Below, in pieces: positions 17,431 to 44,874 of a stretch of DNA of 51,240 bases; the first letter of the stretch is position 1; every line of letters starts with the position of its first letter. This DNA comes from Nemertoderma westbladi (taxonomy: Eukaryota > Animalia > Xenacoelomorpha), in contig JAUCBJ010007306.1 of NCBI GenBank assembly GCA_032718475.1, positions 1 through 51,240 on the forward strand, written 5' to 3'. The notes beneath the pieces were generated by a model. That model was not told the DNA's origin, searched no databases, and was given only the letters and a program-made list of their open reading frames with translations. Made by a program: the position numbers and the translations under genes.

Positions 17431-18164
17431 CCCCACAATCCACCCTAAACTAAAGTAGCATCATTGAGTCTTCACAACACTCTACCATATCCTCACCAAC
17501 AGCAACTCATTCAAGCAGACAAAACGTCACAAGTTATCCAACTACCAGCTCAGATGCGTATATGACCATATTCGTCCGAGGTTTGCCTTCTAATACTTCA
17601 TCACTATCTCTTTCCACACTATGCTACATGCAAAACGGATATCGCCCGCTAAACGTCTGGGTTCAAGGAAACAAAGGTATGCCCAAAACAGCGAAGGTAA
17701 CAATCAATAGATCATATTATAACACTTTTATATAAAGAGATAAGTGGTCTGGTAACCCCCCTGTTGTCAGCATCTGGAATGATAGACCATTGTACACCTA
17801 TTACAGAACAAGGACCAACTTTCATAACAACTCCATACCAAATACAGCTGCTCACTCCATGTATCACTGTATGTATTGTAGTGTGTATGTATTTAAATTG
17901 ATACACAAATTCGAACAGAACAATCTTCATCGCAATCCACAATGCACAGACCATCCTTAAATATAAAAGCTGTAAAACAATAGACCTGAGCAAGTTTACA
18001 CCAACAACCAATAGAAATTAAAATTCAACAACTAAGTTCATGACATTCAACTGCAAAGGATTTGAGAAATATGAACTATATATATGGAACTATTCTCACG
18101 AAGTATATACCCAATATCCTACTCCTGCAAGAGCACTGGCTAAGAGTGCGAGAAGCTGAATTAC
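17430..18164 (+). mobile_element. LINE D fragment 1: ORF1 remnant and start of APE endonuclease
   Basis: TIFVRGLPSN (~17566), FMTFNCKGF (~18037) and ILLLQEHWL (~18115) match APE motifs I and II plus an upstream ORF1-like piece. The frame continues at 25855. Confidence 0.75.
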
Positions 18165-21700: not shown

Positions 21701-23072
21701 CGCTCCAGTACGGAATATTTCCCATTCCGTCGATTCTGTATCACTGGATGAATCGCTGTCGTCGGGATACGGCGGTTGGCGGGTTTGTGTTTGGCGTATT
21801 ACTCTAGTTGGTCGAGTTTGTTGTGGTCTGGGAGCTATGGCTCTCCCTTGTTCGGTTGGCTCGCAAGCCTTCCACGAAGTCATAGGTCTTGGTAAACTCG
21901 GTTCGATCCTGTGGGTACTACCCACATCCACGGTTCTTCATCATTCGGTAGGCTCGCAAGCCTACCACGAAGTCGTAGGTCTCGATACACGTTGAGTAAC
22001 TGGTCTAAGAAATTCATTGGAGTTAGGTAGTACTGTTGGTCTATAATTAACAGGGTTCGTGCAGCACCTCACAGGTTTAACTGGTAACGGTTTATTCACC
22101 TGTTTTATTGTCATAAGCCCTGGTTCGTCTCTCTCTACAAGCAAACTATGGCTTACAGTAGGTGGACTACTTATCTTACCTGCCAGAATCGGCAATGAAG
22201 TCACTTGTGGCTGCGGAACTGATTCCGGTATATCAAACCTGTTACTTTGAATTGAACGTGCAGGCAATATTTCTTTCAGCTTCGCAACTATGATCGGTTT
22301 TACTGGAGTCATGGGTTTGAGCATAGGAATAACTTGGGGAAAATGCTGACAAATAAACCTCGCCGAATTCCTCTCCCCGCTCGATTGCTCCTACACTTCC
22401 TTCCTCTAATCGTTTCTGGATTCCATGATATTGAGTCTCCATGCGATCCAGTGCAGACAAGTCATGTCCCGCTCAAGATCTTATAGATCTATCTCTCGCG
22501 TCGAGTTCGAGGTCTTCTTGCGCATTCGCTGTCTTGCGCGATCTGCGGTTTATTTCAAACTGGAGCTGCATCTCCCTTTCGTGTCGGTCGGCCACCTGTT
22601 GTTGTGCCGCTGACTCCACTTCCTGTATAGCTAAACGAGCTCTTATTTGTCGCGCCTCCAGCTTGGCACGAGTGTTGGATGCTGCTTTCTTCCGTGCTAA
22701 CTCGGCTGTGTTTACCATCGCAACTCGTGCTACCTCAGCTGCATTTGCCACCGCAACTCGTGCTAATTCATCAGCTGCTGCCTGTCGTGCTAACTCGTCA
22801 GCTGCTGCCTGTCATGCTAACTCATCAGCTGCTGCCGCTGCGGCTGCTTCTCGCGCTATGTCCTCCCCCAGTCTCCACATTTCTGATGCTTCAAATTCTG
22901 ATGGCTTCCGGTATTTCCGTTCGCGGTCATGGCGACTCACATGGTGTGACATCGGTAGAATCGCGAGTCCTCCTTCTTGGGTTGTCTACTGTCGATCTGT
23001 CTGCGTCACACAAGTCATAGTTGGTAGGTGGGTACTACCGAAGTAACTAGTCCAGTGTGGTGTATCACTCAT
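18730..23072 (-). pseudogene. gag-pol: E2 gag-pro and N-terminal RT, multiple stops and frameshifts
   Basis: ATG (MSDTPH) at 23072, Ala-rich repeat 22700-22860, DUF1759-like pieces 20986-21280, knuckles 20343-20600, protease 19488-20258, pre-RT region 18754-19143. Confidence 0.85.
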
Positions 23073-23805
23073 GTCTGTATTATATACATCGAATATGGGT
23101 AATAAATGTCAAAATGTCAAAATGTCAAAACTTACCTCGGTATATATATACTATATACACCCTAACCGGTACAAATAAAATCAAAAGGTATATAATTAAA
23201 ATATAATAATTCAGCCTACCGGCTAAATCTGTACAAATAAGTGTATAGCGGTATACGCTACCAAAATATAGATCAACAAGTGTCTAGGGGCAAAAATGTC
23301 TAGGGGAAAATATGTACCAACAAACACATAAATTAGACAGTAGAACCCACAAATTTTGAGTAATACTGTGCTCTAAGTATAAACGACACGAGTCATAAAA
23401 CTTACGTTCCTTTGATCTTCTAGTCATACAGATCCCCAGATACAACAAACGGTTCCGTTTCCAGCATCGTGGACGAATCATTGACCTCCCAAACTTGCTA
23501 AAAACGACCTAATCCTTCGAGGCGGTCCAGAAATGAGTCCTTGAGTACTGAAAAATCGAAGGTGAGAGTTTTACGGACTACTCTACGAAACATTTTCCTA
23601 GGTACCGATACAAATTGGTCTTTAAACCTTGCGTACCTTTTCAAGTACCGAAAAAGGTAACACCGCACACACACGGCCTAAGACAAAATAATTACAAACT
23701 AACTAGCTATTTATAGCTAGCCAAATACAAAATAACTTATTTAAATATAAAATAATTAACTTATGTAGAGCGCACATTGACCTAAATTATGTACGTATCT
23801 CCTAC

Positions 23806-25854
23806 TGATAAGTCCAGTAGTATACCGCCTACCGGATCCTAGTAACGAAGTCCTTACACCCTTACACGAGTCCTTACTGTAGAATCCAGCAGTGTATATG
23901 GGCTTGTACAGTATCTGACAAGAAATCCCAGTCCAGGGCGTCTAAATAAACAGATACTAAGTACACAAACTACTACTGGCGAGGAATGGAGCCTGATGTC
24001 TATTCTAATACTTGGCCGAATCAAATGCCTGGGCTAACTAGACAAACAGGATGCCCAGCCTCTAACCAGTGACGCAGATGTACAGTCTACAGATACAGAC
24101 CAAACTCACGGGAAAACAATCCCTGCGTAGTGAATCCTAACTATCGCTAATGGACCTCAAATACTGTAAACTTGCCGTGGTGTGATTTATATGGGTATAA
24201 TATGAGCTAGTCCAATCAATACTCACATGGTACTAGAGTAAAACAATACTGCCGACAGGAAAATTGCAGTCAAAAGGGGTACCCTGTGACAGAGTAAGAC
24301 AAATACCAAATATCTCCTCAAATAATAATAACTTACTTGTAAATCAGTAGCTTAGATCTCAAGCGTGTGTGTGTTACGAGTAAAACAATTTTGGTGTATC
24401 GCCGTTATACTAGGTTTTGGTGATTTTTAACAAAATAACAACACCGGGCGCTAGCTACTTGAATAAGCTTGTTGCACGCTGTAGGCATAATACTTACAAA
24501 TAACTGACGTCAAAAGGGCTCCCTCCTCCTTTATTCACAACTCAACCAGGCAATTACGTTGTAAGTAACTATGCCTGTGATCGGCACTGATACCAGATTC
24601 TGATTATGAGATAAGGAAATAGGTGTTAATTTACTACCGTACGAATAGCTGATCTGGTATGTAATTTTGATTCTAGAATTTTGTTACTGCAGTAAATACC
24701 TTTCAGTATGTGGCAAGGGCGTGGTCGATAGTTAGTAAACCTCCTTTAGCAAAAAGTGTGCCGGTAGCAGAAAGCTGCCTCTTGCCTGATCAAATACTTT
24801 GGAATCTGACAGGTCAGTCAAACTATAAGGCCTACAGAGCTAACCGGTACTGTAGGTCAGTACTGCAAATCACCAAATTATAGAGCGTGCTATTTGCACC
24901 TAAGTGTACTTGCGTGTACTGACGAACAGCAACAGCTCACACCTGTAGGAGATACACGTTGACCCGGGTTTTTCCTGTCTGTATCTGAGGTATTTAATCC
25001 TAAATTTTACGGAATCCCAGGACGTCGTCACACTTCACCCTGATCTAAAGGTCTTACGGCGGGCAAGGGCGTCAAACAAAGTCTTACCTTCCTCTGATGT
25101 GGGCGTTTTTAGGCAGTGAGGCATACTTCCAAATGGGTGTGGGCGAAGATAATGTGGGCTCTCTTATGCATCGTGGACATCCCTCCCCCTTGCATTGCTG
25201 AGGCCTAACGGTCTAGGCAGCCATTCCCCGAAGCGTTTGGCTGTCTCAAGATAGATACCTCAAAACTACATGTCTGAGTTTGCAGTATATTTTAACGTAA
25301 ATAAAATAAAACGTAAAAAATAACAAAGACTTGTCAAATTAAACTAACTTTGCAAAATAACAAAGCGAATTAAACTGAAATAGACTAATAACTATTAGCA
25401 ATTAAGACTAAAGACTGAGAATAAGGTAAGTGATAACCGAACTACAAACGGCACCTTATATAGCAAATCTTAAGCATGGAATTCACTAGAACATTCTACT
25501 ACATTCTACGAGCGCACATTGGAGCAATAAATTATCAAGTGCCCTACGATTGGCCCAACTCATCATTCCACGTGTTGTACGCGCCCCATTGGCTTATCTA
25601 ACTTAATGAAACCGAAAATATAATACAGCAAAATACAAATTTACCGACCTATATTCGAACCCCTGACCTAATTAGAATGTAACCCGCGCCTTAACCTACT
25701 CGACCACTGTGCCAATAGAATCCCAAGTCAAATTATAACTAATGTAGGTGATATGCAAATTACAACATACTACAAATCAAGGCAAATACGTCGGATTTTG
25801 AAAGTTTTTTACGTAGTACTGTAAATATCTACTTAACAGTGAAATAATCCCACA
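23806..25854 (-). repeat. 5' LTR of E2 (~2.05 kb)
   Basis: The left end is shared with the 3' LTR remnant. The right end is defined by the TG terminus and the ATTAC TSD. It may include secondary insertions. Confidence 0.75.
25643..25713 (-). ncRNA. Degenerate tRNA-derived sequence (Pol III A/B boxes) inside the E2 LTR
   Basis: Minus strand reads GGCACAG-TGGTCGAGTAGG-TTAAGGCG...GGGGTTCGAATA; stems are incomplete. Confidence 0.5.
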
Positions 25855-25987
25855 ATTACTTTTCATCAGACAACAACATATTCCAAGTGAGTACACCTGT
25901 TCAACTTACACCTTAGCCCAAGGTATGCTTGAAATTAAACTTAGAATACGTGGTGAAGGATGTACAGCTATTCTTATTAAAAACATC
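25855..25987 (+). mobile_element. LINE D fragment 2 (APE endonuclease), between E2 and E1
   Basis: Reads LLFIRQQHIPSEYTCSTYTLAQGMLEIKLRIRGEGCTAILIKNI, in frame with both flanking fragments. Confidence 0.85.
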
Positions 25988-27158
25988 TGTAAAAGCTTTT
26001 GCGTCATTAACCGGTTATTTTCCCTTAAAGTACTCTGTAGTTGGTTTGCCAGGCATAAAAAGGCCGTGTCCTTGCTGTACTGGTGTTTTAGAGGACATAA
26101 AAGTCATTTCTTATGTATTTGTACTGTATTTGTACTTTAGAGGACATAATCCGCAATCTCGTGACGCGATAAGCTAGATACTCTTGAAAACAGTGTCGCT
26201 ACCATGACGACGGCTAACAGCTGATATTGCCACGTCGACGTTTCTTTGTTTCTTTGTTCTCTCGTTGTTCGGTTGACCAATCAGAGCGTTTGTTGTCTCT
26301 GTGTTGGAGGTGTATACAGAGGCTCAGTAGTTCAGTGTTATGTTTTTGCCCAGAGCCTAAGAACCGGCTTTTGGCACCTCCGTGTTTTCAGTTTTTAGTC
26401 TTACACTAGTAGGCTTAATTATAAGGACATATATCCGTTATCATAACATACCATACCTAATCAAACAACCTGTGCATACTTTTATATTGTTATACTGCTA
26501 TTTACTGTCAGTTCTTCATAATATGGTTGATGAATTATTATATTTGGAATAACGATAAATAACCCCGAAAACCCAATATTCTTGATATACCGAAGGTAAG
26601 AGAGAAAGGTTACATATAACGATTGTGACTTATGTTAAAGTGGTTTGAAGTGAATCTAATGTTATTTGATAGACCCTACATGATTCGGTCTGTGTTCCTT
26701 TTATATGTGACTAAAATCAGTGAAGATCGGCAGATTAGTGTGCAGTATTGTGCAGCATTGTGTATTAGTGAGACTGATAACGAAGCATTTCCTAAAGAAT
26801 GCGCCATATATGTGAATTGTAACTAAGCCATATCGTTGTGAGTAGTTTAAGTCATAACTCTGTTTATATAGATAGAGCGCCACGTCCTAAAGGAACTGTT
26901 AATATTTCCCGAAGGTGAATAATATTGTCAGAGATTATATAATACTGTCAGTCGAATAATACATTAGGCTTACCTAGCAATAAGATTGAGCCGTCGAACC
27001 CAATCTCCCGGGTATATCCAGCGGGTGAATGATCGCGCACAGATTGGTTTCGACTAGTGTAGTGAATCAAATACTTGTCATAGGCTAAAGGCGAATTATT
27101 ATCTAGAAGACATCCTAATTTGGCGGGTTAAACTGCCAAAGGTCTGAAAGCGCGAACA
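25988..27158 (+). repeat. E1 5' LTR
   Basis: Matches 42121-43291; the only difference I found is T26691 vs C42824. Confidence 0.98.
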
Positions 27159-27170
27159 ATAACGGATATA
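27159..27170 (+). promoter_or_regulatory. PBS position of E1: non-tRNA, complementary to its own LTR at 26430-26441
   Basis: ATAACGGATATA immediately after the LTR is the reverse complement of TATATCCGTTAT in the LTR. No TGG start. Function is inferred. Confidence 0.6.
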
Positions 27171-27523
27171 GCTTCTTTATTGCAGTAAGCAATAAAGTTG
27201 AAAGTACCGGTCAACCGGTAAACCTGAACGGTACATCTGTAGGTCAGTAGGCCCAACTGCCAGAACCGGTACTGCCGTAGGTCCGTAGGTCCAACTGCCA
27301 GAACCGGTACTTCTGTAGGTCCGTAGGCCGAACTGTCCTAACCGGTACTTCCCGTATAAGTACATTAGTATTATTCGATTTGATTGTTGCATACTGGTAG
27401 GCTGTTTAAGAGATTAGGGACTGTACACCCCTTGTTTCTTTTGGAGCTTACTTATTTCTGTCAGTTTTATTTGTTTGTAGGCCAGTATTGAACAGAAGGC
27501 GTGTAAGCCTGATCAGATAGTAC

Positions 27524-28097
27524 AGACAATTTGTAGGCTGGGCTGTTGTCTGATTGCTGTTAAGTCCGAACGGATTGCAGTGTGTGTAGATCACCTGTCC
27601 GATAAAGAACGGTTAGGAAGTAGGGGCAGCCAAAGCTGTAAGGTAAACCCCCAACTAAAGAATAAGTCGTACTACTGGGTTAGAACGCATACTACCTAAT
27701 CATTTCGGAGTCTGCATGTCCTGTAGTTTATTTAGGCTTGAGAGTAGTCTGCCATCGTTTAGTCTGTACTTTGTTTGTGTAGTCTGTACAGGTAGAGTAT
27801 AATATTTATTTAGATAATTTGTAGGCTGGATAGTTGTCTGGCTGTTATTAGGTCTGAACGGATTGCAGTGTGTGTAGAGCCCCTGTCCGATAAAGAACGG
27901 TTAGGAAGTAGGGGCAGCCAAAGCTGTAAGGTAAACCCCCATCTAAAGAATAAGTCGTACTACTGGGTTAGAACGCATACTACCTAATCATTTCGGAGTC
28001 TGCATGTCCTGTAGTTTATTTAGGCTTGATAGTAGTCTGTCAGTATTTGGTCTGCATTTTGTTTGAGTGGTTTGTACGCGTAGCGTAATATTTATTA
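27524..28097. repeat. 288-bp tandem duplication in the E1 5' leader
   Basis: GATAAAGAACGGTTAGG occurs at 27601 and 27889; the core is nearly identical between copies. Confidence 0.92.
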
Positions 28098-28156
28098 TTC
28101 AGAGTTTATGCGATTATTCGCAACATTCATTCCCCAAGTTTGTTCCTACAATAATT

Positions 28157-29358
28157 GTGGCTGGCCACGAGAAAAGGGACCTTATGTCGCAAAACCTGAT
28201 TCTGAGATAATCGCGTTTAAAGTTTCCCTCTAATTTTTGAACAAATTTAATTGGATTATCAATTTAGAAATGTATAAAGCGATGAGGGAAATTCAAATTG
28301 GTTCTGATATTCAATATACCTAGGAAATAACTAATTACAGGAAGCAATATAAGATGTTGCAGTATTGTATATCCCACTGTTTTAGGTTTTTCATGTCTGA
28401 ATTTAGTACTGTAATAAAATTGTACTAATATGTAGGGTAGGTACACTGTAGGCCTACATTTATTTTTTAAATGCAATACTGCAATATGGCTGGCTGTCAT
28501 TTTGTTAATTTCTGTTCGTTAGTTCTGAATATTTGTAAGCACCTACTGCGATGCGATATTAAGTGACACTGAAGAATGAATACCAGACTGTAATATTCAA
28601 AAGTCTACCGCTAGGGGGCGATAATGTTCTAGAATGTAAATTGCTTGTCATTTTGTTAATTCCTGTCCGTTTCTTTTGAAATTTTGTAGACACCTTCTAC
28701 AATATGAAATTATACTTGGGAATGAATCCTAGACTGTAATAGTCAAATGTCTGCCGCTAGGGGGCGATAATGTTCTAGAATGTAAATTGCCTGTCATTTT
28801 GTTAATTCCTGTCCGTTTGTCTTGAAATTTTATAGAGACTTTCTACAATATGGGTGGGACAAGGTGGACATCTACAACACTCCCAATAATGAATTCAATA
28901 TACGAATAATTTTAAATTTTGTAAAAAAAAATTTTTTTTGAAAAAAAAATTTATTGTTTTGAAAAAAATTTAAATTAAAAAAAAAATTTTGGTTAGCCTA
29001 CATGCTTTTTTTTAAACTTTGCAAAAAAATTTTTTTAATAGTTCATTAACAATATTAATAGTTTCAAAGTGTCAAAAGTTGTATAAATAGACGAATAACA
29101 TTGAGCTGCCTAACTATATACAGTAGTAAGAATTGCTATGATATTATTAATATTTTCCATTTTTTTTAAATAACAAAATTATTTTGAAAAGAGCTACCGG
29201 ATTCACCTTCACATAAATCGCTATAACTTTTTTTTGGAAATAGATATTGAGACCCCGTTTTTTTTGTTAAAATCTCTGGAAAATTCTGCATCTCATAGGC
29301 CTAGTAACTCAAAATCGACCTCCGGTGACATAAGGTCCCTTTTCTCGTGGCCAGCCAC
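28157..29358. mobile_element. Non-autonomous DNA transposon with 32-bp perfect TIR and AATT TSD (Sola1-like), nested in the E1 leader
   Basis: GTGGCTGGCCACGAGAAAAGGGACCTTATGTC at 28157-28188 and its reverse complement at 29327-29358; AATT at 28153-56 and 29359-62; internal ~146-bp repeat. The Sola1 assignment rests on the 4-bp AWWT TSD only. Confidence 0.85.
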
Positions 29359-30237
29359 AATTGTGTTTGTTATACATACCGCTATAGTTAAATTAACCCC
29401 GGTACTACACGGGCTGCTTGGCGTAGGTAAAGACTGGTGATTTTGTGCACCGGTCACTCCAGCAGATGCCGTGGTTCTTTTAGCTGTTCAAGTATATTTA
29501 ACTACTGATTATATGTTGTACAAGTACTCGTACCTAATTTAGGGTTTAGTGTACAGTGCTTTCCGAAAGTAATTAGTGTAGACATTATATTTGTGTTGTA
29601 AAGTGGTTGATAGGCACGTTCGATTAGCTCTATTAACTTCTAGGTAGGAACACTCCGTGATACATAACGTAGTACCTATAGCGATACGGCTATAGGTCGT
29701 CAGGCGGTGGTATTTTCCTATCTGGACAACGCAGTGTATTTGCTACTACTTATTATTTTCAAATACCGTAGTACCCTGTCCGTTGTAATAACCAGATTCT
29801 AACCCTTTGTTAGGCTGGTTTGTAGACATCTTGTAAAATTACCCTGAAAATTCGTATTTTGTGTTTTTGTAAATTTTTGTGTTTATTTAGAGATTGTAAT
29901 CTCACCCGAATTGTACGTAATTTGTAGTATTAAGTAACTTAGGTAAATTAGCATTATTTGTTAGTGTCCTATAAGTAACACTTCACTGAAAGCGCACCGC
30001 TTTGTGTAGTGATTACTCCCCAGAAATAATAACATTTATTTCAACATTGACAAAACCCATTAAACGGGTATATATATATTATAAATCAACTCAAACGATT
30101 TATAAATAGTAGGCCTGCCATACAACAATTAGGTCTCAATATCAGTTGGACTACTGCTTAAATAACGGCAATAAAGTAAGTTAAGGTAACCAAGTAACCC
30201 TTAAAATTCAGAAATTCAGTTATTTAAAATAATTGAT

Positions 30238-30610
30238 ATACCGGTATTTACAATAGGCTTATTATATTTATTTCCATAAATTTTAGGTTGAAATCATACC
30301 GGTATTCTGTAATTAATTCTAGTTTGTAATTATACTTATATATATACACTATAAGTGTAAACTGCATACCGGTATTTACGATAGGCCTATTATCTTTATT
30401 TCTATAAATTTAGGCTGAAATTATACCGGTACTTGTAATTAATTCTAGTCCAGAATTATATATACTACAAACTGTAAGCTGTATACCGGTATTCCCGATA
30501 GGCCTATTATATATTTATATATATTTGTGCTAAAATTATATACCGGTTTCTGTGAAAAACCTAGTCTGTAATAATACTTATATATACAATAAGCATACCG
30601 GTATTCTAAT
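30238..30610. repeat. Degenerate tandem repeat with a TACCGGT core, upstream of E1 gag
   Basis: About 7 ATACCGGT(A) cores at ~55-70-bp spacing, alternating two unit types. Confidence 0.75.
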
Positions 30611-30739
30611 ATATTATATATATCACGCTACACTGAGTAGCAGTATCGGTAATTAATTACTAGGCTAGCAGTTAACTCTGAATTACTAGACTTGCTTAAA
30701 CTGTAATATAGCAGTAGGCATTCAACTGTGCAAACCAAC

Positions 30740-33700
30740 ATGTCTGACACTAAACAGAACCTGTCAGACAGTTTATTAGATGTAACTATCTGCGACTCAG
30801 ACAGAGGTGTAGAACCGTCTAGTCCTAAGTTCAGTTCACCTCCCACTGTGAGGAAGGTCATCCCTCCAGTAGTAATAACAGAACCTAGGCTGGTCCAACA
30901 TCGTAGGTCTATCATAGGCACTCGAGCTCAGGTCAAGCGGGACCAAGAAGCAGCGGAACAGCAACAACCCGCGAGCCAAGAACTTATTTCTCAGCGGCCC
31001 GACAGCTCCAGTAGTGAAGATACTGTAGAACTGACACCCGAGCGCGGAGCAAGGATGACGGATGCGGTTTATTCGGATCCCCTTCTCATCCTTCCTGCAG
31101 CCGTACTCACTAGGCTATTGATCGCGGTGGAAGAACACCAGATCGATTGGGCGAGAAGTAAGCGCTCAACTAAAGATAGTTATGCGGGATACACAAAGGA
31201 AGAACTGAAATCTATGGTCGAGTCGCAATGGAACTTCCCCGGACCCGGACTCCCGTTCGATTTATCAGAAGCTGCCTGGGAAGACATACACCGGATGGGA
31301 GTAGCCAAGGAAACCATCGATCCAGCTGTGTGGAAGAGGTCCGCAGCCGGATACGCACAGAGATTCTTCAGCTCTATGGAGAGAGTAGAAAAACAACTGT
31401 TTCAACAACCTAAAGGACCTCAAGAGCAGGGACAACTGCTTTATCAAGTTAGAGAAAGAATTCTGCGAATCAGGCTAATATTATCAGCCTTTGAAGAGGC
31501 TTCTAAAAGAAGACAAGACACGTCGTTGCAAGTTGCCGTAAAGACTTGGTTTCAACGGGTGAGTCGCCAGGTTCAAGGAACAGCTCAGTGGAAAGCTCAG
31601 CTGGAGGAGCGCTCAACCCATGGAGAATCAACGGACGCTACTTTTTCCCAAGTGGAAAGTGAAGCGACGGCAGAGAAACCGCATAAGAGGGATGCCATTG
31701 ACATCTATCTGTCAGACTATCAGCGTTTTTTGGGAGATGAAGAGTTGAGGAGAAGGCTAGATGGACTTAGCCCTAATAGTGAAGGAGCCCAGCGTGTGTT
31801 GGATGCAATTGATGTGGATAGAAAGACAGCGGCAGTGGCAGCAGCAGTGGCAGAGGCAGAAGCGGAAAGAAAAGCGGCAGCAGCAGTGGCAGAGGCAGAA
31901 GCGGAAAGAAAAGCGGCAGCAGCAGTGGCAGCGGCAGAAGCTGAAAGAAAAGCGGCAGTGGCAGCAGCAGTGGCAGCGGCAGAAGCGGAAAGAAAAGCGG
32001 CAGTGGCAGTGGCAGTGGCAGAGGCCGAAGCGGAAAGGAAAGCGGCATCGGCAGTGGCAGAGGCCGAAGCGGAAAGAAAAGCGGCACTGGCAACAGCAGA
32101 GGCAGTGGCAGAAGCAGAACGGAGGGCATCTGAAGAGGCAACCCAACTAGAGTTGGAAAATCTTCAAGAGAGGCAAGACAACTTCAATAAACAGTTAACA
32201 GCTAGTAATATGCAGATGATGAGTCGATCTACTCCCAAAAGACAGGGGTATACATCATCTGAGGAAGGCGATACTACCGATACTGAAGGCAAAGGAAATA
32301 GATCTCGTCTAAGCAGACGTAAAAGAACATTCCATCGTCAGAAATTGCCTGATTTGCCTCCAGCTGTTAGAAGACAACTAAATAACACCAACTTAGGTAG
32401 TACAGAGCCCACAGACCAAATAATTCAAATAGAAAGACTCCCTACTATAGTAGATGAGCCTGAAATAATTAGGCCTGTTCTTGAAATCACCCCTTCGGTG
32501 ATAGACACACCTGTGCTCCCTGAAGCTACCTCTAAATTCCCTCTGCATAGCACTAAGCTACCTGTGCCCAGTAGAACTGCCCAGGAGACAGTTCAGGTCC
32601 TGGACCCCGAGCGAAATATTCATGATTTGTCGCCCGTTGTCCCTCGTCCGCCCGCTACAACGTTGGCGACTCCCGCTTTGGCGGTCGAATGGGTGGACGA
32701 GAGACGGCGGGGGATGGATCTCCTGCTCGGGCAGATGCAGGAGACTGTTCAGCAATTCAAGGGCACAGTAAGGGAAAGTAGGCTAGAGTTGCAAGAAGTG
32801 CAGCAAAGTATCGCGCTAGAACGCGATAAATTAGTAAATACTCAAAGGGGTATACCACCACCCTCGGTAACAATGTGTCAACCTGTTAGGTCTGAAGTAT
32901 CTCATGCGCAAGGTGTGGAGCCTACACGCATATATACTGCTAGCGATGTAGAAACTCCTATAGTGAACCCTATTAAGGGTAATTATAGACCTGTTGATAA
33001 TGACATTCCCTATAGACCTGATCATAATCCGAGAAATTTATATACCGATAACTCGATATTAAATAACACGATGGCCCAAGAAAGTTTTACGCGTCAAATG
33101 GCTAGAACCGAAGCCCGGCAAGCGGTGAAGGTGGGAGAGATCGTCAAGTTCAATGGAGATGAGATGAAATGGTTACCTTTTAATGAATATTACAAAGATA
33201 ACATACAGAACTCTGTACTATCTAATGGAGAGAAACTTAGATTCCTCATCGAGTGCTTGGAAGGATCTCCCAAATTAATGGCGTTAAAGTTTATTGGACA
33301 TCCAGACGGATTAAGACAAGTTTGGGATACACTAAACATCAGGTATGGTAATAGGAATAACATAGCTGGGTTTTTGTATGCAAAGTTGGTAGCGCCCCGA
33401 AGGTTTATTAGCAACGGGATTATAGAGTTTTCCGATGAAATTCAGGAGATCTGCAGACAATTAGATTGGCTAGGTAAGTCTCATGAGTATCAGAGTGCTA
33501 TGGTTATTAGAGCAGTGGCTTCTACTTTACCGAAGGGTGGAGTAGGTACACGCTGGGACAAAAAGGTGTTATACATGATGGAACAACAACAACGAAACCC
33601 TACCATGACCGATCTCATGACATTCTTGGATGGCGAAGTGAAATTACAGCTCATAAAGCAGTCCAGAGAGAAGACATCGGAAAACAAGGTAAGTGAGAAA

Positions 33701-36700
33701 CCCGTCTCCAGAAGAAAGGTAACACCAGTGTGTTATACCGACGACGGCGAAAGCCAAGCTTCCCAAGGGGAAGATAGCGGGAAAGACACTGAAAGATCTT
33801 ATTATGTCAATAAAACACCTAACGAACAGGGAAGTAAATTTAAGTCTCGATCCAATGACAAGAGAGAACAGGTAAGAAAAAGTCCTCCTACGTCTCCCAA
33901 GAGAATTCAGGTGAGAAAGCCCGAAGAAAGAACGAGAGTGCACAATGTCACCCAAAATAAGGTAAGTAACATCAAACCGAAATGTGCGCTATGTGACGGG
34001 ACCCACCGTTTGAATATGTGTGATGAATTTCTGAAGAAGTCATTAACGGAGAGACGCGAAGTCATGTGGGATAAGCGGTTATGTTATAATTGCCTCAGAC
34101 AAGGACACCAACGGCGAACCTGTTACTCTGACATAAGGTGTGCAAAGTGTGGTGCGAAACATCATATCTTGTTGCACGCTGAATTCGAGCGAAATAGTCT
34201 GAATCAGGTAAGTGATTCCGAACTACATGTCCAATTCAGTGATGTGAACGACACTGATCAATCTGAGATGGAAGGATTCTATACGGACGAGTTCTCCGAC
34301 GAAAACGAATCCTGTTACATGATAAATACCGCAGTGTATCGAGCACTCATATATGAAAAAGATACGGACAGCGACCTCACTCTAACTACTTCGGATCAAC
34401 AACAATCGTGGAAAGCACCAACTTCCGATGTAGGAATCCGAGAATTTCCTGTAGTCCAGTTACGGGTCCATGGACCTCAGAAGAGCTATATAGTGAACGC
34501 CCTCCTGGACTCCGGTAGTACAGGAACATTCATCGACAAAGAGCTAGCCGAAGACATATTTGCTGGACAACCCAAGTTCCGAACTAAGCTAAACATGTCC
34601 GGCATTATGCAAGTTTGGAAATCTACATTAACAGCGGATTATTATGTAGGCGCGTTGTCCACCCCCCAGGACGAACTAGGAGAACATAGCATAAGGTGAG
34701 TGAAAATGGTGGCTATAAAGAACTTCGCTACTACTCAAGCAGACCTTTATAATTGGGACGAGGATGAGAGCATCCAACATCTTAAGATACCTCGATTCCA
34801 AACTGATTATCCTGGAGTGCAAATACTCATCGGCCAAAACGCGCATGAGGCGCTCGAGACATTGGAGAAACGGCCTGCTCAACCGCAGCCACTACAGACC
34901 TATGCGGTAAGAACTAGAGTAGGTTGGTACTTTACTGGCCCTTCCCGTAGAACACTCAGAGAAAGACTACCGCAAGAGCACGTCTGCCAGGTGAGTGAAT
35001 GGGAAGATGATACCAGTGAGGGAGACGATTTAACTGAGGGAACTCCATACTCCTCAGATAACGACGACGTTCACCAGCTTTTTGATGAGGAGAATACCAT
35101 CGATCTCCTTAAGGAAAACGAGGCTTGGCAAAACCAAGTGAACTTATGTCAACTTCTTTATCCATCTGAACGAGAAGCTTATAACGACGAGCTAAATGAC
35201 GTCATTGAGCGTTGTAATGCCAAGACTCGAGATGAACATGCCGTACGATTCTTTACGCAAGAGGCGGTAGAGCCCAATTCCTACGATAAAGCCTTATCGG
35301 TGGAAGAGGAAAGGGCCAAGCAGATCCAAGAGACAACTACACGTTTCCTCAAAGATCAAGGTAGGTATGAAGTCGGTCTACCTTTCTGCAAGAGAGAACC
35401 GAAGTTCATCAATAACAGACCCTTGGCGGAAAAAAGAATCGCGCAACTCCATCGACGCCTTACGGCTAATTCTTCAGCTAAAGAAATGTATCAAACACAG
35501 CTGGAGAAATTTATTAGTAAGGGATACGCGGAGAGAGTACCGGAAGAAACACCTGTGACTGAAAGAACGTATTACTTAACTCACCATTACGTTCCTAAAC
35601 CCGGTAAACCACATGAAGTGAGAGTAGTGTTTGATGGCTCCGCTCTTTACATGGGTCAATCCCTTAACTCTGAATTGTTACCCGGACCCAACTTACTTCA
35701 ATCTTTGTTGGGAATTCTTTTAAGATTGAGACAATATTCGATTGCTTTCGCCTCCGATATAGAAGGCATGTTCTTACAAGTCAAAGTGTTAGATAGGGAT
35801 CGAGATAGTCTACGATTTCTGTGGTGGCCCGAAGGAGACCTCAACCAGAAACCGGTGGAGTACTGGATGACCATCCAGGCCTTTGGGATAATCTCAAGCC
35901 CTTCCAACGCCTGTTCGGTAGTGTGTACCACTGCAGAGGACAACCGAGAGGCATTCTCTAAGGAAGTGATCGACAACATCAAGCGAGACATATACATGGA
36001 CGACAATCTGAAGTCCCTCCCATCAGTTGAGGAAGCCATTGAGGTTGCTAAAGGAACGGTAGAGTGCTTAAAAAGAGGTGGGTTTCGATTAACGAAATTC
36101 ACCAGCAACTCCCGTGAGTTTCTGGAGTCGATCCCTGCGGAAGATCGAGGGGCGAAAGATCTAGATTTGATCAAAGATGATCTGCCAGAAACCAAGACAC
36201 TCGGCTTGAAATGGGACACAGAGCGAGATATCCTGTTTTTCCAGCTAAAACAGCGAGATAATCCAGTTCGAACCAAACGGATTTGCTTAAGTATACTGAG
36301 CACTTATTTCGATCCATTGGGATTTATTAGCCCAGTTATATTGATTGCTCGTAGTTTGGTACAACAAATGTGGCTTGATAACCACTCATGGGACGATCCA
36401 CTTAAGGGAGAATTATTAAAGAAGTGGATGAAATGGGAAGATTCTCTGCCGGCTATCGAGGATTTTATAATTTCCCGTTCATATTTTGGTCATGTTCTCC
36501 CTACGTATTCCTATCAACTCCATGTGTTTGGAGACGCCAGCGATATGGGAATAGGTATAGTAGCCTATCTAAGAGTGGAAACTCCAGATGGAATCAAATT
36601 CGCCTTGGTTACTTCTAAGGCATTAATCAACAACAAGTTGAAAGTTCTCGAGCGGAGTTAAAAGCGGCTCTATACGCTTCAGCCATCGGCCGGAATGTAA

Positions 36701-38877
36701 CAGAACAGATTGACTATCCATTAGAGAAAACTGTCTATTGGACCGACGCTTTACTCGTGTTAGAGTATATAACCAATGAAGTCTGTCAGTTCAGCGTCTT
36801 CGTTACCAACAGAGTAGCCATCATACTTAGTCGCACGACGATGGACCAATGGAGACATTGCCCCGGAACGATTAATCCAGCAGACATCGCTTCCCGAGGA
36901 GCGACTCCAAAGGAATTGGTAAATACTCCCGAATGGTTAGGTGGACCCGACTTTCTCTACAGAGAAGAAGAAGAATGGCCTCCGCATCTCACAACAGCAG
37001 AGATCAGACAGGCCAAGGGAGCGGAGAAAGTTAAACCCAAAACTCGAGCGAGTAAATCGAAGTTGTTTAAACCTGCTGTTGATCTATCTGTATTATTTAC
37101 TCCCGGAGAGGATGCTTTGGATCAGAAACCCACCGCCACGACTAAAGAAGTCTTGGAAATCCGTGACAAGGATTGGAAATCTGGAATACCAGATATCGCG
37201 CAAGGACTCTCACCCCTCTTGCAGAGAGCGATACGTCACTACAGTTCCTGGAATCGGCTCTGTAAAGCCGTCACCTATTTAAAACGATGTTTTCATCATC
37301 GTTACTCCGGGACAAAGACCAATAGTGATGATGCTCCATCAACATCTGCACGAGTCCATGTTGTTAAAGATCTTCCTAAATACAAGATATCCGACAGGTT
37401 TCTAAAGGAGAAGATCAGTTACCAGGAGCATGATGAAACCAACAAACAGATGCTGAGACTCCTACAATGCTATGAGGATTCCGATAAGTATTTCCTGTTG
37501 TTAAGAAATCCGCAGATGCGCTTAAGGGATCGCTTCTCTAGTACCATGATAGATGGGTTAATACGTGTTGGAGGCAGGCTCACCAACGCCCCATTATCCT
37601 TTGATACTAAGTTTCCCATACTCATTAGAAATCTTGACATACAAATCAAGATGATTGTAGATGTTCATAGCAAACTGTACCATGCTGGTAGAGAACGAGT
37701 TCTGAGCGAAATTCGAACTCGGTACTATTTTTATAAACCCTGTAGGGCTCTGAACCAAGTTCTTAGGAACTGCATACCCTGTAGGAAAGCATTCAGTAGG
37801 CCTTTAACACAGCGAGAGGCAGAATTACCTAGGGAAAGAGTAAGCTTCTATGAACCACCCTTTACTAATACCGGTGTGGATTTATTTGGCCCTATTGAAG
37901 TATATCGTGCCCGGACTATAGTCAAGAGATGGTGTGTCATCTTCGTTTGTATGACTTGTAGAGCTATCCATCTCGATATGGTAAACGATCTATCCACCAA
38001 CAGCTTCGTGTTGAGTTTACGACGACAGATCGCTCGTTTCGGAACCAGTAACACGATGAGATCGGATAAGGGAACGAACTTCATTGGCGCCAACAACGAA
38101 ATTCAAGCTTACGTAAAGGACTGGAACAAAAGACAGGTGGACGATCAGCTAAAGATAACAGCGTCTAGCTGGACCTTCAACGCCGCCGACGCCCCTTGGT
38201 GGGGAGGAAGTTGGGAGAGATTGATTAGGAGCGTGAAGACTGCGTTCCACTTTATTGTACCTTGTCGCGCTTATCTCACCGACGAACTATTGCGGACGTT
38301 AATGGAGGAAATCGCCGCCTATCTCAACGAAAGACCGCTTATGCCAGTCTCTTCAAGTCCTGATTCCCTGGAAGCGCTAACACCCGCGCACTTTCTACTG
38401 AAGAAACCCGTAGCCATGCTCCCACGATCGGAGATCACAGACGGAGACGAGTACTGCCGTCGAACCTGGCAACTTATGCAGTTGCTATCCCGTCGTTTCG
38501 CTGACCATTTCGGGAAACATTACCTGCCCACTCTACAACTTCGAACTAAGTGGTTTGCGCAGCAAGAAAACGTCAGCGCTGGAGACATGGTGCTTATTGT
38601 GGACCCCGATCTCCCACGTAAGCGATGGCAAACAGGACGTATCATCGAGACTCATATCTCGAGCGATGGTTTGGTGCGATCAGTAGAACTCGTCGTCATG
38701 CGGCGTAACTTTAAGAAACCAGGGATAGTCTTTGAGACTCAACAGCTCAACCGCCCAGTGGGTCGTTTATGTTTACTGGAAAGAGACAGAGAGCTCTCCG
38801 GAAACTATGGAAGGCAAGAAACTCTTCCCACGACCACTTCCCTAATCCAACCGACATCTAGGGACTCCCCAACTTAA
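30740..38877 (+). pseudogene. gag-pol: E1 gag-pol polyprotein (Gag, aspartic protease, RT, RNase H, integrase) with one in-frame TGA (34697-99) and one 1-nt deletion (~36647)
   Basis: ATG at 30740; DUF1759-like region; knuckles CALCDGTHRLNMC / CYNCLRQGHQRRTC / CAKCGAKHHILLH; protease LLDSGS; RT SDIEGMFLQV and YMDD; RNase H LHVFGDAS, (P)RAELKAA, WTDA; integrase HHCC, GVDLFGP, SDKGTNF, GGSWERLIRSVK. Confidence 0.95.
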
Positions 38878-40547
38878 TATCGTTCGGAGTGGGCGTGTGA
38901 CTCTATTATTTTATATTATTTTATTATTTTATATTTATGTATGTATTACTATGTAATTTTATTATAATCGTTTTATTTAATTTAGTAGAATATTATTTAG
39001 CGATTATTTAGTAGAATAGTGCAATATGTTCGTGTTTATTGCGTACGTAATTACTTATATTATATTTAGTGTGACGGTGAGAAACAAGTGTTTTTCTCTT
39101 TCCTTACTGTCCGTATTATATTATAAATACGTAACTACAGTAAGATGAAATGTCCGTACTTATTAAAGTACAATAAAGCCACTACTATATTCAAGTATTA
39201 TTGGTAGGCAGAGTATTAGGAATGCAAAGTTCAGATCCTCGTGTCTCGGCTAAACCAAGCTCTGGGTAGACCTTGGAAACGACTTGCCTCTTCACACTGA
39301 CATTGCTTCGTGCGATATTGCTCTCATACCGTATATTAAATAATACATATAGTAGCGTGATGTCCCTTTAACAGTAGCGTATAACGCAAAATAAATCTGT
39401 TAAACCCTTTGACCATCTGTAATTCTAGTCGATTAAGATATCGCGGCACCCACCGATATACTTGAAAGACAAATTTTAGAATCAGTGGTTAACGTCCCCA
39501 GACAAGTTCTGGAATAAATCGGTGCCCATCTCAAATATTAATTATTTAATATTTGCAAATCTAATAAATCAACTCTGTAAAATTCAGATCCTTCAACAAT
39601 TCTAGTCAATTAAGATATCGTAGCATTTACCGATATTCTTAAAAAGACAATTTTCATAGAATTAAGGATCTTGTGTCCCCAGACATGTTCTAGAATCAAA
39701 ATATGTCCATTTAATTATCAAATAATAAAATTTCAGGGAATAAATTTAAATTCATGCCTTTTAATGAATTTAATAAATTGCCATTTTTACGCAATTTATA
39801 ACATTCCCAAAATTCCATTAATTAATAGATCAAGGGAGCGGAGATTTATCTTATTATGCGTATGAGTGTGAGAAAGTCTCCCAAACATAGTCAATAGCCG
39901 ATAAAATTCATAAAGTCATGTATAAAACAGGACATTGACCATTAAAGAATTACTATTAAATAACATCCCAGATCTGTATGCATTGGAATTACCCTAATTC
40001 TACTGCTAGCTTTACATAATGTCACCATAGCAACAACCACGCTAGAATTAGAATTGAGTTAAAAGAACAATAGACAGCTTGTCCCATTGAATAGCATAGG
40101 GAATAAACAGTGCACTGCTAGTATCCAAGGATACATGATAATAACGTGACATTCTGGAAGGCACTGACTAACGGACAAGTGACCCGAGTGTGTGTAATTT
40201 GTGACAAGTTGTGTGTGTGGTATTTGTGAGTTTATAGGCGAATGTTACTACTAAGGTGTGTTTACAGTAGCGAGTCGCAATTGTGAAAGTAACCCTAACT
40301 CTCCAGTAAGAACCTGAGGTGTATCTATGCCTTTGGGACGGACAGTCGAGTGACTTGTGCCGGTTGTCGTTGTCGTTGTGCGGCTACGTCATTGGCGAAA
40401 GTACAGCGGCGACGACACATCGGCGCTGAGGATCTAGCACTGTCCGGGGGCTGATGGGGGTAGGCAGCGACGCTCGCTAGCCTAAATATAAACTCATTAT
40501 AATATTAATAAACTCATATATAGCAGATATGACGGAGTTGATAGAAA

Positions 40548-41657
40548 ATGGTCTTGGTATCAGGGAGCGATATACTCTACTTTCAAGCGTTTGTTGATAG
40601 CTTGATACGCGGTGATACTAGTCCAACTACTACGAAGGATGATGGTCGTTATATCGAACCTACGATTTCCTGGAAGTAACTTACGCGTGAATTGGACTAT
40701 GGAAAATTCACCGCTCGCTATACGCATCGTAATGGTACGTATGTGGACTTCTTAACTACTGGTCATCCTATCGATTTACACGATACAGACAATGTCGACA
40801 CCAAAAGGGAAATGGTACGATTGAAATATCCTACCCAGCGGAGGCGGAACGATAAACCGAGAATGGAACACGAGAATTCTATTCGAAACAGACTCGAAAG
40901 AGAAGACGTTGAGGAGCCGGATAAACGCAGCGACTTCAATGATTATCTGGAATTCCTGATAGAAACATATCTCAATATTGCCAGTCAACAAAATCTAGAA
41001 ACTCGATATCCTCAAGGTATACATCATGACCGCATGGTAGAACTCAAACGGCTCGATTCCCCTATGATGTATCTTATCGCCGATCGACCGCTACCTGTTG
41101 TACCGAATAGCTTCGAACGGATGGAGGAATATTGTAAGCTGGAGAAAGATCACTCGCGTTTCCCCTACAAGACGTACGTTTTTGGGTATTATTGCGATGA
41201 ATGCCCAAGACCCAACCAACAAACGGAAAGACATAAACATCCGCGGAGACGTTGCTTTAAACACGGTTTTACTCGCTATACTTACAGGAGTTTCGAGCGA
41301 AACTTGTTCAATGTATCACCTACGCTCGTTCGACTCAGACGATCCTTAAATAAACCAATGATCAGAGTTTCGGAATACTCGATCAGAGCTCCTCATTCCC
41401 TAGTGAGACCTCAGACTCTTGATCCTATTAGTATGACGGATCCTCCCGAGCTGTACTCACTGCTCAAAGATCTAGTGTTACCTGAACGATTAGTCGGTGG
41501 CACCCCAGTTGTGGGTTTCTTAGATATTAGCCCATCCTACCTAGCCGGATTGGGACGCGGACATTTAATATCGCCGTTTAACCCTTACCATCGTCCCGGC
41601 TTGACACGATATATTCTGTCACCAGAGTGGCGGAGAACGTTGTACCAAACGAGTTAA
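40548..41657 (+). CDS. E1 accessory ORF3 of unknown function (one internal TAA at 40677-79; open 40680-41657)
   Basis: A 321-codon open frame lies between integrase and the 3' LTR. An in-frame ATG in good Kozak context (GAAAATGG) is 48 codons upstream. No family recognised. Confidence 0.65.
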
Positions 41658-42110
41658 ACGCTATTCTACAAAGATCAGAAAGGAAACCTACAGATAAACG
41701 TAAGTTGTAGCATCAAGTCCAAGCGATAAACGAATTGTCTTTATCTCAGTTCGATTGTGAAATCCAGAATCTCTAAGAAGATATCGCACTTAGACAACCC
41801 CATTCTCTGCGAGAGTTTTTGGATGAACGTATCCAGCTACGAGCGGAGGAAAATCAGCTCGAGGAGAAGCATATCGAAATGGCGGATACCCCGACCATAA
41901 TCCTACACCTTCTGATGCAATCATATTGCACCCTTCACCCAGGATTTATAGCCCTCCTAGTAAAGTGGCTCCCCCCAAAGAGAAAAGGACTCTTGCTAGC
42001 CTCAAAAAACTGCGTAAACGCCGTCTGCGTAAGAAAGACTAACTGTTTAGAGTATTCTTATATTTTAGAAACCGTGATTTGTTATATTTTATAGACTTAA
42101 ATCCCATTTT

Positions 42111-42120
42111 CTGGGAGCGG
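42111..42120 (+). promoter_or_regulatory. Polypurine-tract position of E1
   Basis: CTGGGAGCGG directly precedes the TG of the 3' LTR. Confidence 0.6.
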
Positions 42121-43291
42121 TGTAAAAGCTTTTGCGTCATTAACCGGTTATTTTCCCTTAAAGTACTCTGTAGTTGGTTTGCCAGGCATAAAAAGGCCGT
42201 GTCCTTGCTGTACTGGTGTTTTAGAGGACATAAAAGTCATTTCTTATGTATTTGTACTGTATTTGTACTTTAGAGGACATAATCCGCAATCTCGTGACGC
42301 GATAAGCTAGATACTCTTGAAAACAGTGTCGCTACCATGACGACGGCTAACAGCTGATATTGCCACGTCGACGTTTCTTTGTTTCTTTGTTCTCTCGTTG
42401 TTCGGTTGACCAATCAGAGCGTTTGTTGTCTCTGTGTTGGAGGTGTATACAGAGGCTCAGTAGTTCAGTGTTATGTTTTTGCCCAGAGCCTAAGAACCGG
42501 CTTTTGGCACCTCCGTGTTTTCAGTTTTTAGTCTTACACTAGTAGGCTTAATTATAAGGACATATATCCGTTATCATAACATACCATACCTAATCAAACA
42601 ACCTGTGCATACTTTTATATTGTTATACTGCTATTTACTGTCAGTTCTTCATAATATGGTTGATGAATTATTATATTTGGAATAACGATAAATAACCCCG
42701 AAAACCCAATATTCTTGATATACCGAAGGTAAGAGAGAAAGGTTACATATAACGATTGTGACTTATGTTAAAGTGGTTTGAAGTGAATCTAATGTTATTT
42801 GATAGACCCTACATGATTCGGTCCGTGTTCCTTTTATATGTGACTAAAATCAGTGAAGATCGGCAGATTAGTGTGCAGTATTGTGCAGCATTGTGTATTA
42901 GTGAGACTGATAACGAAGCATTTCCTAAAGAATGCGCCATATATGTGAATTGTAACTAAGCCATATCGTTGTGAGTAGTTTAAGTCATAACTCTGTTTAT
43001 ATAGATAGAGCGCCACGTCCTAAAGGAACTGTTAATATTTCCCGAAGGTGAATAATATTGTCAGAGATTATATAATACTGTCAGTCGAATAATACATTAG
43101 GCTTACCTAGCAATAAGATTGAGCCGTCGAACCCAATCTCCCGGGTATATCCAGCGGGTGAATGATCGCGCACAGATTGGTTTCGACTAGTGTAGTGAAT
43201 CAAATACTTGTCATAGGCTAAAGGCGAATTATTATCTAGAAGACATCCTAATTTGGCGGGTTAAACTGCCAAAGGTCTGAAAGCGCGAACA
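42121..43291 (+). repeat. E1 3' LTR
   Basis: 1171-bp direct repeat of the 5' LTR, followed by the TSD. Confidence 0.98.
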
Positions 43292-43560
43292 ACATCCTGA
43301 TGAGCCAACACACAACGATAAATGCCTATTCAGATCGAATTTCAGGGATAACATTGAATGGTTTTAACAACTTTAACATAGCTCTCCTTAATGTCTATCT
43401 TCCAGCTGACTGCAAACTTTCGAATGACAAAACAAATTACATGAGAACTCTAAGCGAATTGGTATTTATCGAGGAATGTACAGAACTGGGACTCCAAGTT
43501 ATTATAGTTGGAACATTAATGGTACAATATAGAAACATGGAGTGCTATATACAAGAGGAG
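43292..43560 (+). mobile_element. LINE D fragment 3 (APE endonuclease)
   Basis: Reads ILMSQH...SDRISGI...ALLNVYLPADC...QVIIVG; cut by another LTR at 43561. Confidence 0.8.
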
Positions 43561-44425
43561 TGTTCGCGCTTTCAGACCTTTAGCAGTTTAACCTGCCAAT
43601 TTTAGTTGTCCTCTTGTTTATAAATCGACTTTAGCCTATAACAATTATTTAGTGCACATGAAGTTACATTAGCCGAAGCCAGTCTATGCGCGATCATTCA
43701 CCCACTGTTAAGGGAGACTGGATTCGGATGCTTTGAAGGGATTGCGGTGCAGACCTACGGTATTATTCGATTGATCGTTACTATATAATCTCTGACAAAT
43801 ATATTTACTTTCGGGGAAATATTAACAGTTCCTTTAGGACGTGGCGCTTTAAGTATAAAAACAGAGTTATGACTTATACTAATCACAACTAGATGGCTAC
43901 TGAGTTTCGTAAATAGCGCATTCTTTAGGAGATGCTTTATTATCTGTCACACTACTGCACACGACTTCACACTATTTCACACTGATCTGCCGACCGTCAC
44001 TGAATTTGATCATATATAAGGAAGATCGCAACTGACACTTGTAGGGATTATGAAATAGCATTTAATTCACACAAAAAACACTATAATGTAAGTCGCAATT
44101 GCTACAGGTAACCGGTCCCTCTTACCTTCAGTAATCAAGAAGATTGGGGTTTTATGATTATTTATCGGTATTCTCCAAATATAACAACATATCCATCAAT
44201 ATACAACAATTAATAACAGACAGTGAACAGAAGTAAAATAATGCGGTGAAAGTAATGTTCCCAGAGTTATGCAGGCCAGCAATGTTTCAGGAAATAGTGC
44301 TCCAGTATAATAGATTTACGTTCTTGTAATCAAAGCCATCTAATGTTTTGGCCAAAGTCTGAAACTTCTACAGAAGCACAGAAGAATTCTAAGCCGGTGT
44401 TCTGAGGCTCAGAAAAGGTAAACAA
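43561..44425 (-). mobile_element. Diverged, truncated LTR of an E1-related subfamily
   Basis: Starts TGTTCGCGCTTTCAGACCTTTAGCAG and stays colinear with the reverse complement of the E1 LTR to ~44420. The far end and TSD were not found. Confidence 0.85.
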
Positions 44426-44467
44426 AGACCGTAATGCATTGCGCGGTTTTACATAGGCCCCTCAGGG

Positions 44468-44539
44468 GCCTATGTGGTGTAGTGGTTAGCATACCTGAAC
44501 GTTTATCGGGAGAAGCGGGTTCGATTCCCGCTGGTGGCG
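44468..44539 (+). ncRNA. tRNA-derived element (SINE head or tRNA pseudogene)
   Basis: A box TGGTGTAGTGG, B box GGTTCGATTCC, perfect T stem (GCGGG/CCCGC), paired D and anticodon stems. The acceptor stem is broken and the anticodon loop is non-canonical. A T6 run follows. Confidence 0.7.
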
Positions 44540-44874
44540 AATTCATTTTTTCCGCTCCATTTGCTATAGAGTTGGATCATCCTTAGTCCTGTTTAATTAC
44601 TTATAATTTATACAATCTATGGATGTTAAACACATATACAATTATAATAATTTATCTATATATTTATTTAATTAATATAATAAATTTTTCTATTATTATA
44701 AAAATGTGAATTAAAATTGAACAAATTTTCAAACAAACTTTCATCAAACTTTTTGTTTTTCAATTTTAATTCTTAATTTTTAGTGAGGTCTTGTTGTTTA
44801 TATGTGACAATAGTAATTATAATAAAAAAAATAAAATTTAAGATAAATATATAATATTCGATATAGGGAATTTA

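Follow-up and report, generated by a model that had tools for sequence, protein, structure and literature searches.

A young BEL/Pao retrotransposon of Nemertoderma westbladi with a primer-binding site complementary to its own LTR

BEL/Pao elements in the window

The window analysed here is a stretch of 51,240 nucleotides from a contig of the xenacoelomorph Nemertoderma westbladi (JAUCBJ010007306.1), and its features are collected in Table 1. It holds E1, a young BEL/Pao retrotransposon of 17.3 kb on the plus strand (25988-43291), whose two LTRs differ by a single mismatch (1170/1171 identical). We assigned E1 to BEL/Pao on the basis of its pol proteins. DUF1759, Peptidase_A17, Integrase_H2C2 and DUF5641 are found above the cut-off, the RT and protease matches are weak, and BEL/Pao homologues align along the element in the order protease, RT, RNase H, integrase. 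All four acidic motifs of RNase H are discernible in the frames. The pol region is interrupted twice, as the gag-protease frame terminates at an in-frame stop within the protease region and the frame changes in RNase H near 36620-36650. Such a broken pol would mean that E1 was copied in trans, that the breaks are recent or that they are assembly errors. The additional 325-codon frame gave no Pfam family match and no usable Atlas match. The 3.5-kb leader contains several internal duplications and a 1.2-kb stretch between inverted repeats (28155-29360), perhaps a nested DNA transposon, and gag carries a tandem Ala/Glu-rich repeat (AEAERKAA-like, 31795-32158).

With the Belpaoviridae E1 shares DUF1759, Peptidase_A17 and DUF5641, the PR-RT-RH-IN order and a 5-bp target-site duplication (TSD), and the LTR traits of that family (TG...CA ends, TSD, polypurine tract) are all present. 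The ICTV profile describes genomes of 4.2-10 kb with an 18-nt primer-binding site (PBS) for tRNA-Arg or tRNA-Gly, and terms BEL/Pao replication poorly understood (PMC8742986). E1 departs from this description in its length and in the absence of a tRNA site, a trait that is also missing from E2 and E3, since TGG is absent after the LTR in all three. The integrase spacing of D61-D49-E is nearest to the Sinbad/Saci-1 type, for which PMC554778 gives D62-D49-E in Sinbad, with a second interval of 45 in Pao and 53 in BEL; this spacing is a pointer and not a definition.

Among the best 120 of 618 matches the closest RT/RNase H relatives of E1 are only 37-45% identical, and those that are named come from cnidarians, echinoderms, molluscs, fishes and other aquatic animals. 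The query alignment comprised E1 and 42 of these 120. A FastTree tree with 91 rows does not place E1, which forms a long branch at an open fork in a 12-row group that includes both TGG-type loci and one spliced-type locus (see below), so that we make no claim about the order of events.

E2 is classed as BEL/Pao by its DUF1759 and RT homology, and its gag has an Ala-rich repeat near 22700-22850 which resembles that of E1. An earlier note on this DNA gave no coordinates for its third element, E3, which we took to be the element with an LTR end at 1004. A TSD was sought for E3 and none was found. Partial LTR B was considered as a candidate for the same element and dismissed, as its flank is host sequence. 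At least five copies of a 17-20 bp motif lie in the upstream region and gag of E3 (433-660, 1858-1965), and this motif resembles the LTR end of E1. By eye, a single old remnant of a LINE endonuclease (~17900-18164, 25855-25987 and 43292-43560) seems to have received E2, E1 and LTR B at sites only a few hundred bases apart, which suggests an insertion hot spot. A tRNA-like A/B-box stretch seen by eye within the E2 LTR (25650-25730, minus strand) and a tRNA-Asn-like sequence adjoining the truncated end of LTR B (44468-44539) are probably SINE heads. An intronless gamma-glutamyltranspeptidase frame, a 44-bp tandem array and a C2H2-like 84-bp repeat (minus strand) occupy 44842-46728, 48596-49599 and 50694-51151, respectively.

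Table 1. Positions of the elements, coding frames and observed or predicted priming features in the window
Feature	Position	Strand	Remarks
E1 TSD, 5 bp	25983-25987 (left), 43292-43296 (right)	+	
E1 5' LTR	25988-27158	+	1171 bp, TG...CA
E1 CCAAT-like box	26277-26281	+	common to solo LTR A; putative role
Inr-like TCAGT	26388-26392	+	candidate transcript start
Predicted third helix, 5 bp	26413-26417 with 27186-27190		
Predicted second helix, 5' strand	26421-26427	+	overlaps TTATAAG; partner 27174-27180
E1 candidate self-primer, 12 nt	26430-26441	+	exact complement of PBS
E1 splice-donor-like AG/GTAAG	26594-26600	+	conserved in E1, LTR A and LTR B
E1 PBS position	27159-27170	+	directly after LTR, gap 0, TGG absent
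Predicted second helix, 3' strand	27174-27180	+	
Leader hairpin, 9 bp	27175-27197	+	directly after PBS; competes with second helix
E1 gag-protease frame	30707-34699	+	DUF1759, Cys-His boxes, aspartyl protease start
E1 remaining protease, RT (YMDD), initial RNase H	34700-36661	+	Pfam Peptidase_A17
E1 remaining RNase H and integrase	36619-38877	+	Integrase_H2C2, DUF5641; D61-D49-E
E1 additional 325-codon frame	40680-41657	+	env position, between pol and 3' LTR
Polypurine tract	42113-42120	+	adjoins E1 3' LTR
E1 3' LTR	42121-43291	+	
E2	25854-18165	-	own 5-bp TSD; internal deletion after RT start
E2 5' LTR	23806-25854	-	2049 bp
E2 candidate self-primer, 11 nt	24945-24955	-	
E2 PBS position	23795-23805	-	complementary to 24955-24945
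E3 candidate self-primer, 11 nt	770-780	+	LTR end 1004; 3' remnant 3284-3428; weaker
E3 PBS position	1007-1017	+	2 nt past LTR end
Solo LTR A, sister subfamily	5565-6786	-	own TSD; primer site 6316-6305
Partial LTR B	43561-44446	-	~75% to E1; host sequence flanks; PBS absent

Complementarity between the PBS and the LTR

The earlier note had reported that no TGG or tRNA complement follows the 5' LTR of E1, and that the first 12 nt after it are the exact reverse complement of a segment within the LTR. Both observations are borne out, with first bases free of TGG and pairing at 12/12 positions. The complementarity stops at 12 nt, and within the window it is confined to the two LTRs. When the LTR was shuffled with its dinucleotides preserved, 2 of 5000 shuffles equalled the match (5 of 3000 reached 12 when offsets of 0-5 were permitted). 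A scan of 14,932 positions in the interior of E1 showed that the PBS alone reaches 12. Matches of 10-13 nt are frequent at arbitrary CA positions of this AT-rich window, so that only anchoring at true LTR ends counts.

The same geometry had been claimed for E2 and E3. It holds for E2, which pairs at 11/11 positions at offset 0 with letters unrelated to those of E1; 2 of 5000 shuffles were as good, and only 3 of 5051 internal positions reach 11, the PBS among them. The anchored p value is ~4e-4 for each of E1 and E2, in agreement with the note's view that chance is disfavoured. The E3 match is weaker and shares this geometry only in part, being an AT-rich stretch of 11 nt at an offset of 2 nt (15 of 3000 shuffles as good). 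The distance from primer to LTR end is 717 nt in E1 and 1139 nt in E2, and 44-224 nt in E3 and the relatives described below. No canonical poly(A) hexamer was found in the E1 LTR; 12 of the 16 LTRs listed have a poly(A)-type hexamer downstream of the primer, as strand transfer would need.

The primer site of solo LTR A departs from that of E1 in 2 of its 12 bases. X1 is a public, possibly RNA-derived sequencing run (contigs, share of words 0.21), whose listed U5 variants at 26614, 26615, 26684 and 26687 have the letters of LTR A. Among the X1 joints listed, none between the donor and the LTR end resembled splicing, which counts neither for nor against it. We predicted in advance that A-type copies would be changed at 27159 and 27163, and X1 was then aligned to 27110-27290. 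The LTR end is crossed by an 83-nt contig (27116-27198, depth 16.6 of 22.3) whose only departures from the window are at these two positions, with the letters which restore 12/12 pairing with the LTR A site. The predicted change is 1 of 594 possible two-base variants, and one of its two bases pairs with the 3'-terminal base of the primer. Further subfamilies account for two minor junction contigs (depth 3.55 and 2.2). As the primer site of the A type and the PBS of X1 come from separate records, the linkage between them is indirect.

We investigated recurrence in 100 relative loci, which are taken to be animal host DNA: 80 metagenome loci (the best 80 of 529, from a scan of 14 of 64 parts) and a further 20 that were found in genome bins. 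The latter (L081-L100) are BEL/Pao pol sequences in 20 contigs of bacterial genome bins, most likely animal-host contamination. The LTR end was fixed by a direct repeat in 16 of the 100 loci and could not be fixed in 84 (L011, L035, L039 and L097 were dropped on inspection). Two of the fixed-end loci, L051 and L052, have TGG-led sites, which we take to be of the tRNA type, and these show no LTR match of at least 7 nt. Among the 14 others, 13 have a PBS that pairs with 10-15 nt of the LTR of the same element, a match equalled in 0-1 of the shuffles (60 per locus, or 25 where the LTR was long). The pairing is a contiguous 11 nt in L048, L071 and L087, and the match in L085 is weak. Ten of the 14 match over 10-15 nt only after the removal of a predicted GT-AG intron within the LTR (L001, L015, L017, L029, L037, L041, L042, L083, L084 and L092, with L037 and L041 forming one family). 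Between L083 and L084 three exon-side bases differ and the PBS changes correspond; in both loci alternative donors score equal to the canonical donor. The poly(A) hexamer of L083 and L084 begins one base past the primer 3' end, with no gap between them, which would leave only ~45 nt of strong-stop DNA.

A blind scan of 10 of the 84 loci without a fixable LTR end gave spliced matches of 10-11 nt in 7, with 0-2 of 15 shuffles as good. In the rest, L060 yielded nothing, L033 is TGG-led and L088 is ambiguous. L016 duplicates L015, and L020 also bears a TGG-led motif 76 nt further on. The intron-less junction was sought as DNA among the loci and was absent for 9/9 spliced families, and a spliced primer sought in E1-E3 was not found. 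The AG after the E2 primer had raised the idea that the primer is the 3' end of an excised intron; this was rejected, as E1, LTR A and LTR B have no AG there. A pattern search of viral contigs gave 365 matches, none of them related, and an 18-base LTR-end pattern had 11 matches in prokaryote genomes, which is about the chance expectation estimated for 596 Gb.

At the level of sequence, then, the signature is real and clearly exceeds chance; it co-varies between PBS and LTR and occurs widely in this branch. Two checks proposed in the earlier note point the same way: PBS and LTR co-vary in the comparison of LTR A with X1 and in that of L083 with L084, and the match test against shuffled controls is positive in 13 of the 14 non-TGG relatives.

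Predicted folding of the leader and competing explanations

In the predicted co-fold of E1 a 2x3 loop separates the 12-bp helix from one of 7 bp that uses 26421-27, and a further 5 bp are paired, at -25.6 kcal/mol in total. For the second helix we scored the pairing between 14 nt on the upstream side of the primer and 14 nt on the downstream side of the PBS, taking both from one family or from swapped families. Besides E1-E3, the 19 rows comprised 11 fixed-end and 5 blind loci; the near-duplicates L041, L084, L016 and L020, the weak L085, the TGG-led loci, L060 and L088 were left out. Own pairs gave -6.16 and swapped pairs -4.16 kcal/mol, a difference reached in 14 of 100,000 permutations (p=1.4e-4), and this p value is post hoc, as the helix was first noticed by eye in the same data and the families are non-independent. 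Windows shifted by 20 and 40 nt gave p=0.72 and 0.92. The own pair ranks first among the 19 in one family; it ranks third in E1, seventh in E3 and 18th in E2, where no second helix is shown. Hairpins adjacent to the PBS are also seen in L017, L092 and E3.

The predicted folding depends on where the transcript starts. In whole-leader folds the primer helix has a probability of 0.82-0.98 for starts at 26390-26430 and of 0-0.01 for starts at 26300-26380. Folding the E1 leader without a putative intron left the result unchanged, the cut being approximate at 3 nt off the donor. Both motifs that the earlier note had named, TCAGT at 26388 and TTATAAG at 26419, are present in the E1 LTR; the former fits the foldable range of starts, and either range would be compatible with the CCAAT box at 26277. 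In E2, TATATAAG at LTR position 393 lies ~500 nt upstream of the primer and, if it is a promoter, points to an internal primer. TATA-like hexamers were not enriched at -35 to -24 of the primer, being found in 3 of 19 families as against 1-3 in nine other windows.

Taking the sequences and the modelled folds together, we think it probable that E1 primes reverse transcription with its own 12-nt LTR stretch, excised from the RNA interior, and not with a tRNA. Another possibility is that the helix is real and conserved but structural, serving packaging, dimerisation or a translation switch, and that a host tRNA fragment or small RNA displaces it to prime. The hairpin competing with the second helix suggests two states, half-tRNA priming exists in copia lineages according to PMC6317226, and our comparison with host tRNAs covered one tRNA-like gene in the 100 loci and the window. 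Against this, the PBS letters vary by family, the base opposite the primer 3' terminus changes between E1 and X1, all matches start 0-4 nt past the LTR end, and allowing one G-U pair lengthened few matches, unlike the second helix with its wobbles and bulges. The E1/X1 co-variation also argues against half-tRNA priming, and we regard a purely structural role as unlikely.

A second possibility is the strict Tf1 form, in which the RNA would start at 26430 and its first 11-12 bases would be the primer. An RNA starting there forms the helix with a probability of 0.97, and the match lengths cluster at 10-12 nt, near the 11 given for Tf1 in PMC7175516. However, TATA-like motifs show no enrichment ahead of the primer, and the first exons of spliced relatives would have to be 3-9 nt long. 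Because the predicted second helix requires RNA upstream of the primer, the primer is presumably internal and not the first 11 bases, and the strict form appears quite improbable. The proposal in the earlier note that this lineage self-primes is upheld in part: the co-variation and the recurrence in relatives give self-priming good support at the level of sequence, and the strict Tf1 model is unsupported.

The note had also raised the worry that TTATAAG acts as a TATA box and excludes the primer. The RNA would then start downstream of 26441, and the primer would come from the 3' U3 copy or another transcript. The motif is conserved in LTR A, and the identity of E1 to LTR A rises from 50-75% to ~95% only from 26528. 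But LTR B has TTACAAG at this motif, and the splice-spanning primer of the relatives is best explained by a transcribed 5' leader. The bases of TTATAAG form part of the predicted second helix, which makes the retention of the motif explicable, and it is likely that they serve as a strand of this modelled helix and not as a TATA box. The worry is eased and not removed, and we consider a start downstream of the primer very unlikely. That E1 is a degenerate element, or an ordinary one primed by tRNA, in which the match arose by chance is barely credible and largely refuted by the anchored p values, the predicted two-base change and the matching relatives, for all the short matches at arbitrary CA positions and the weakness of E3.

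Proposed mechanism and known self-priming elements

Priming from an internal LTR stretch would build on the 12-bp complement, the co-variation and the recurrence observed above, with steps modelled on those of Tf1. Transcription would start some tens of bases upstream of the primer, where ~26390-26420 suits folding, and the leader would fold back to pair 26430-41 with the PBS, braced by 26421-27 and 27174-80. The RNase H of the element might then cleave at the 3' edge of 26430-41, as in Tf1, and RT would extend the new 3'-OH straight into U5. RNA upstream of the cut would be discarded, and strand transfer would rely on sequence downstream of it. Plus-strand synthesis would copy the primer and so rewrite the PBS from the LTR site in every cycle, which would account for the perfect pairing over 10-12 nt and the matched changes. 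Many relatives are predicted to put this primer together by removing an LTR intron, and E1-E3 would represent the unsplit form. The conserved donor at 26596 may belong to a subgenomic RNA, because the template would lose any intron that was spliced out of its U5.

Self-priming is described for Tf1/sushi, Tcn1 and TAR in PMC6317226. According to PMC7175516, PMC4600332 and PMC5341516, Tf1/Tf2 of S. pombe, Tj1 of S. japonicus, Tf1/sushi and Tcn1 have a PBS of ~11 nt right after the 5' LTR that is complementary to their own LTR, and the Tf1-type primer is proposed to be freed by an RNase H cut. E1 shares with the Ty3/gypsy elements Tf1/sushi and Tcn1 the absence of a tRNA site and the LTR-complementary PBS. 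By analogy, E1 likely works like Tf1 self-priming, outside Tf1/sushi, and the internal primer would be the difference. Tf1 primes with the first 11 bases of its RNA, whereas the modelled primer of E1 probably lies inside the RNA and has a second predicted helix on its upstream side, and 10 of 14 relatives would have a primer that crosses a predicted splice junction. E1 is furthermore a BEL/Pao element with the domains specific to that group, without the Ty3/gypsy chromovirus pol of Tf1. The TAR rule, as worded in PMC6317226, predicts self-priming from an LTR complement of at least 10 bp located 0-5 bp after the LTR; E1, E2 and E3 each have such a complement past the 5' LTR and no tRNA PBS. The TAR lineage of plant Ty1/copia elements (Houba, Osr-1) differs from E1 in its copia domain order and plant hosts.

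In the literature listings and main texts that were searched, we found no report of BEL/Pao self-priming. A term search for PBS and tRNA had no hits in the main texts of PMC554778, PMC3118150, PMC6238403 and PMC8556966, and the accessible sections of PMC8220671, PMC3601003, PMC4558846 and PMC6934838 added nothing on BEL/Pao priming.

We lean slightly towards the broader view that a marine BEL/Pao branch of wide extent swapped tRNA priming for a start of a third kind, an internal self-primer of ~11 nt, held by a second helix, excised from the leader and mostly built by splicing, with the unsplit form in E1-E3. Self-priming of this kind, if true, would explain elements annotated as lacking a PBS and would give a simple rule for finding their boundaries. 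An internal primer would mean that the Tf1 chemistry dispenses with the RNA 5' end, and if the primer is built by splicing, transposition would be switched by the splicing of the host. If true, self-priming would extend to a third LTR superfamily and would have arisen more than once, with an origin independent of Tf1/sushi and TAR and with the start of reverse transcription tied to RNA processing.
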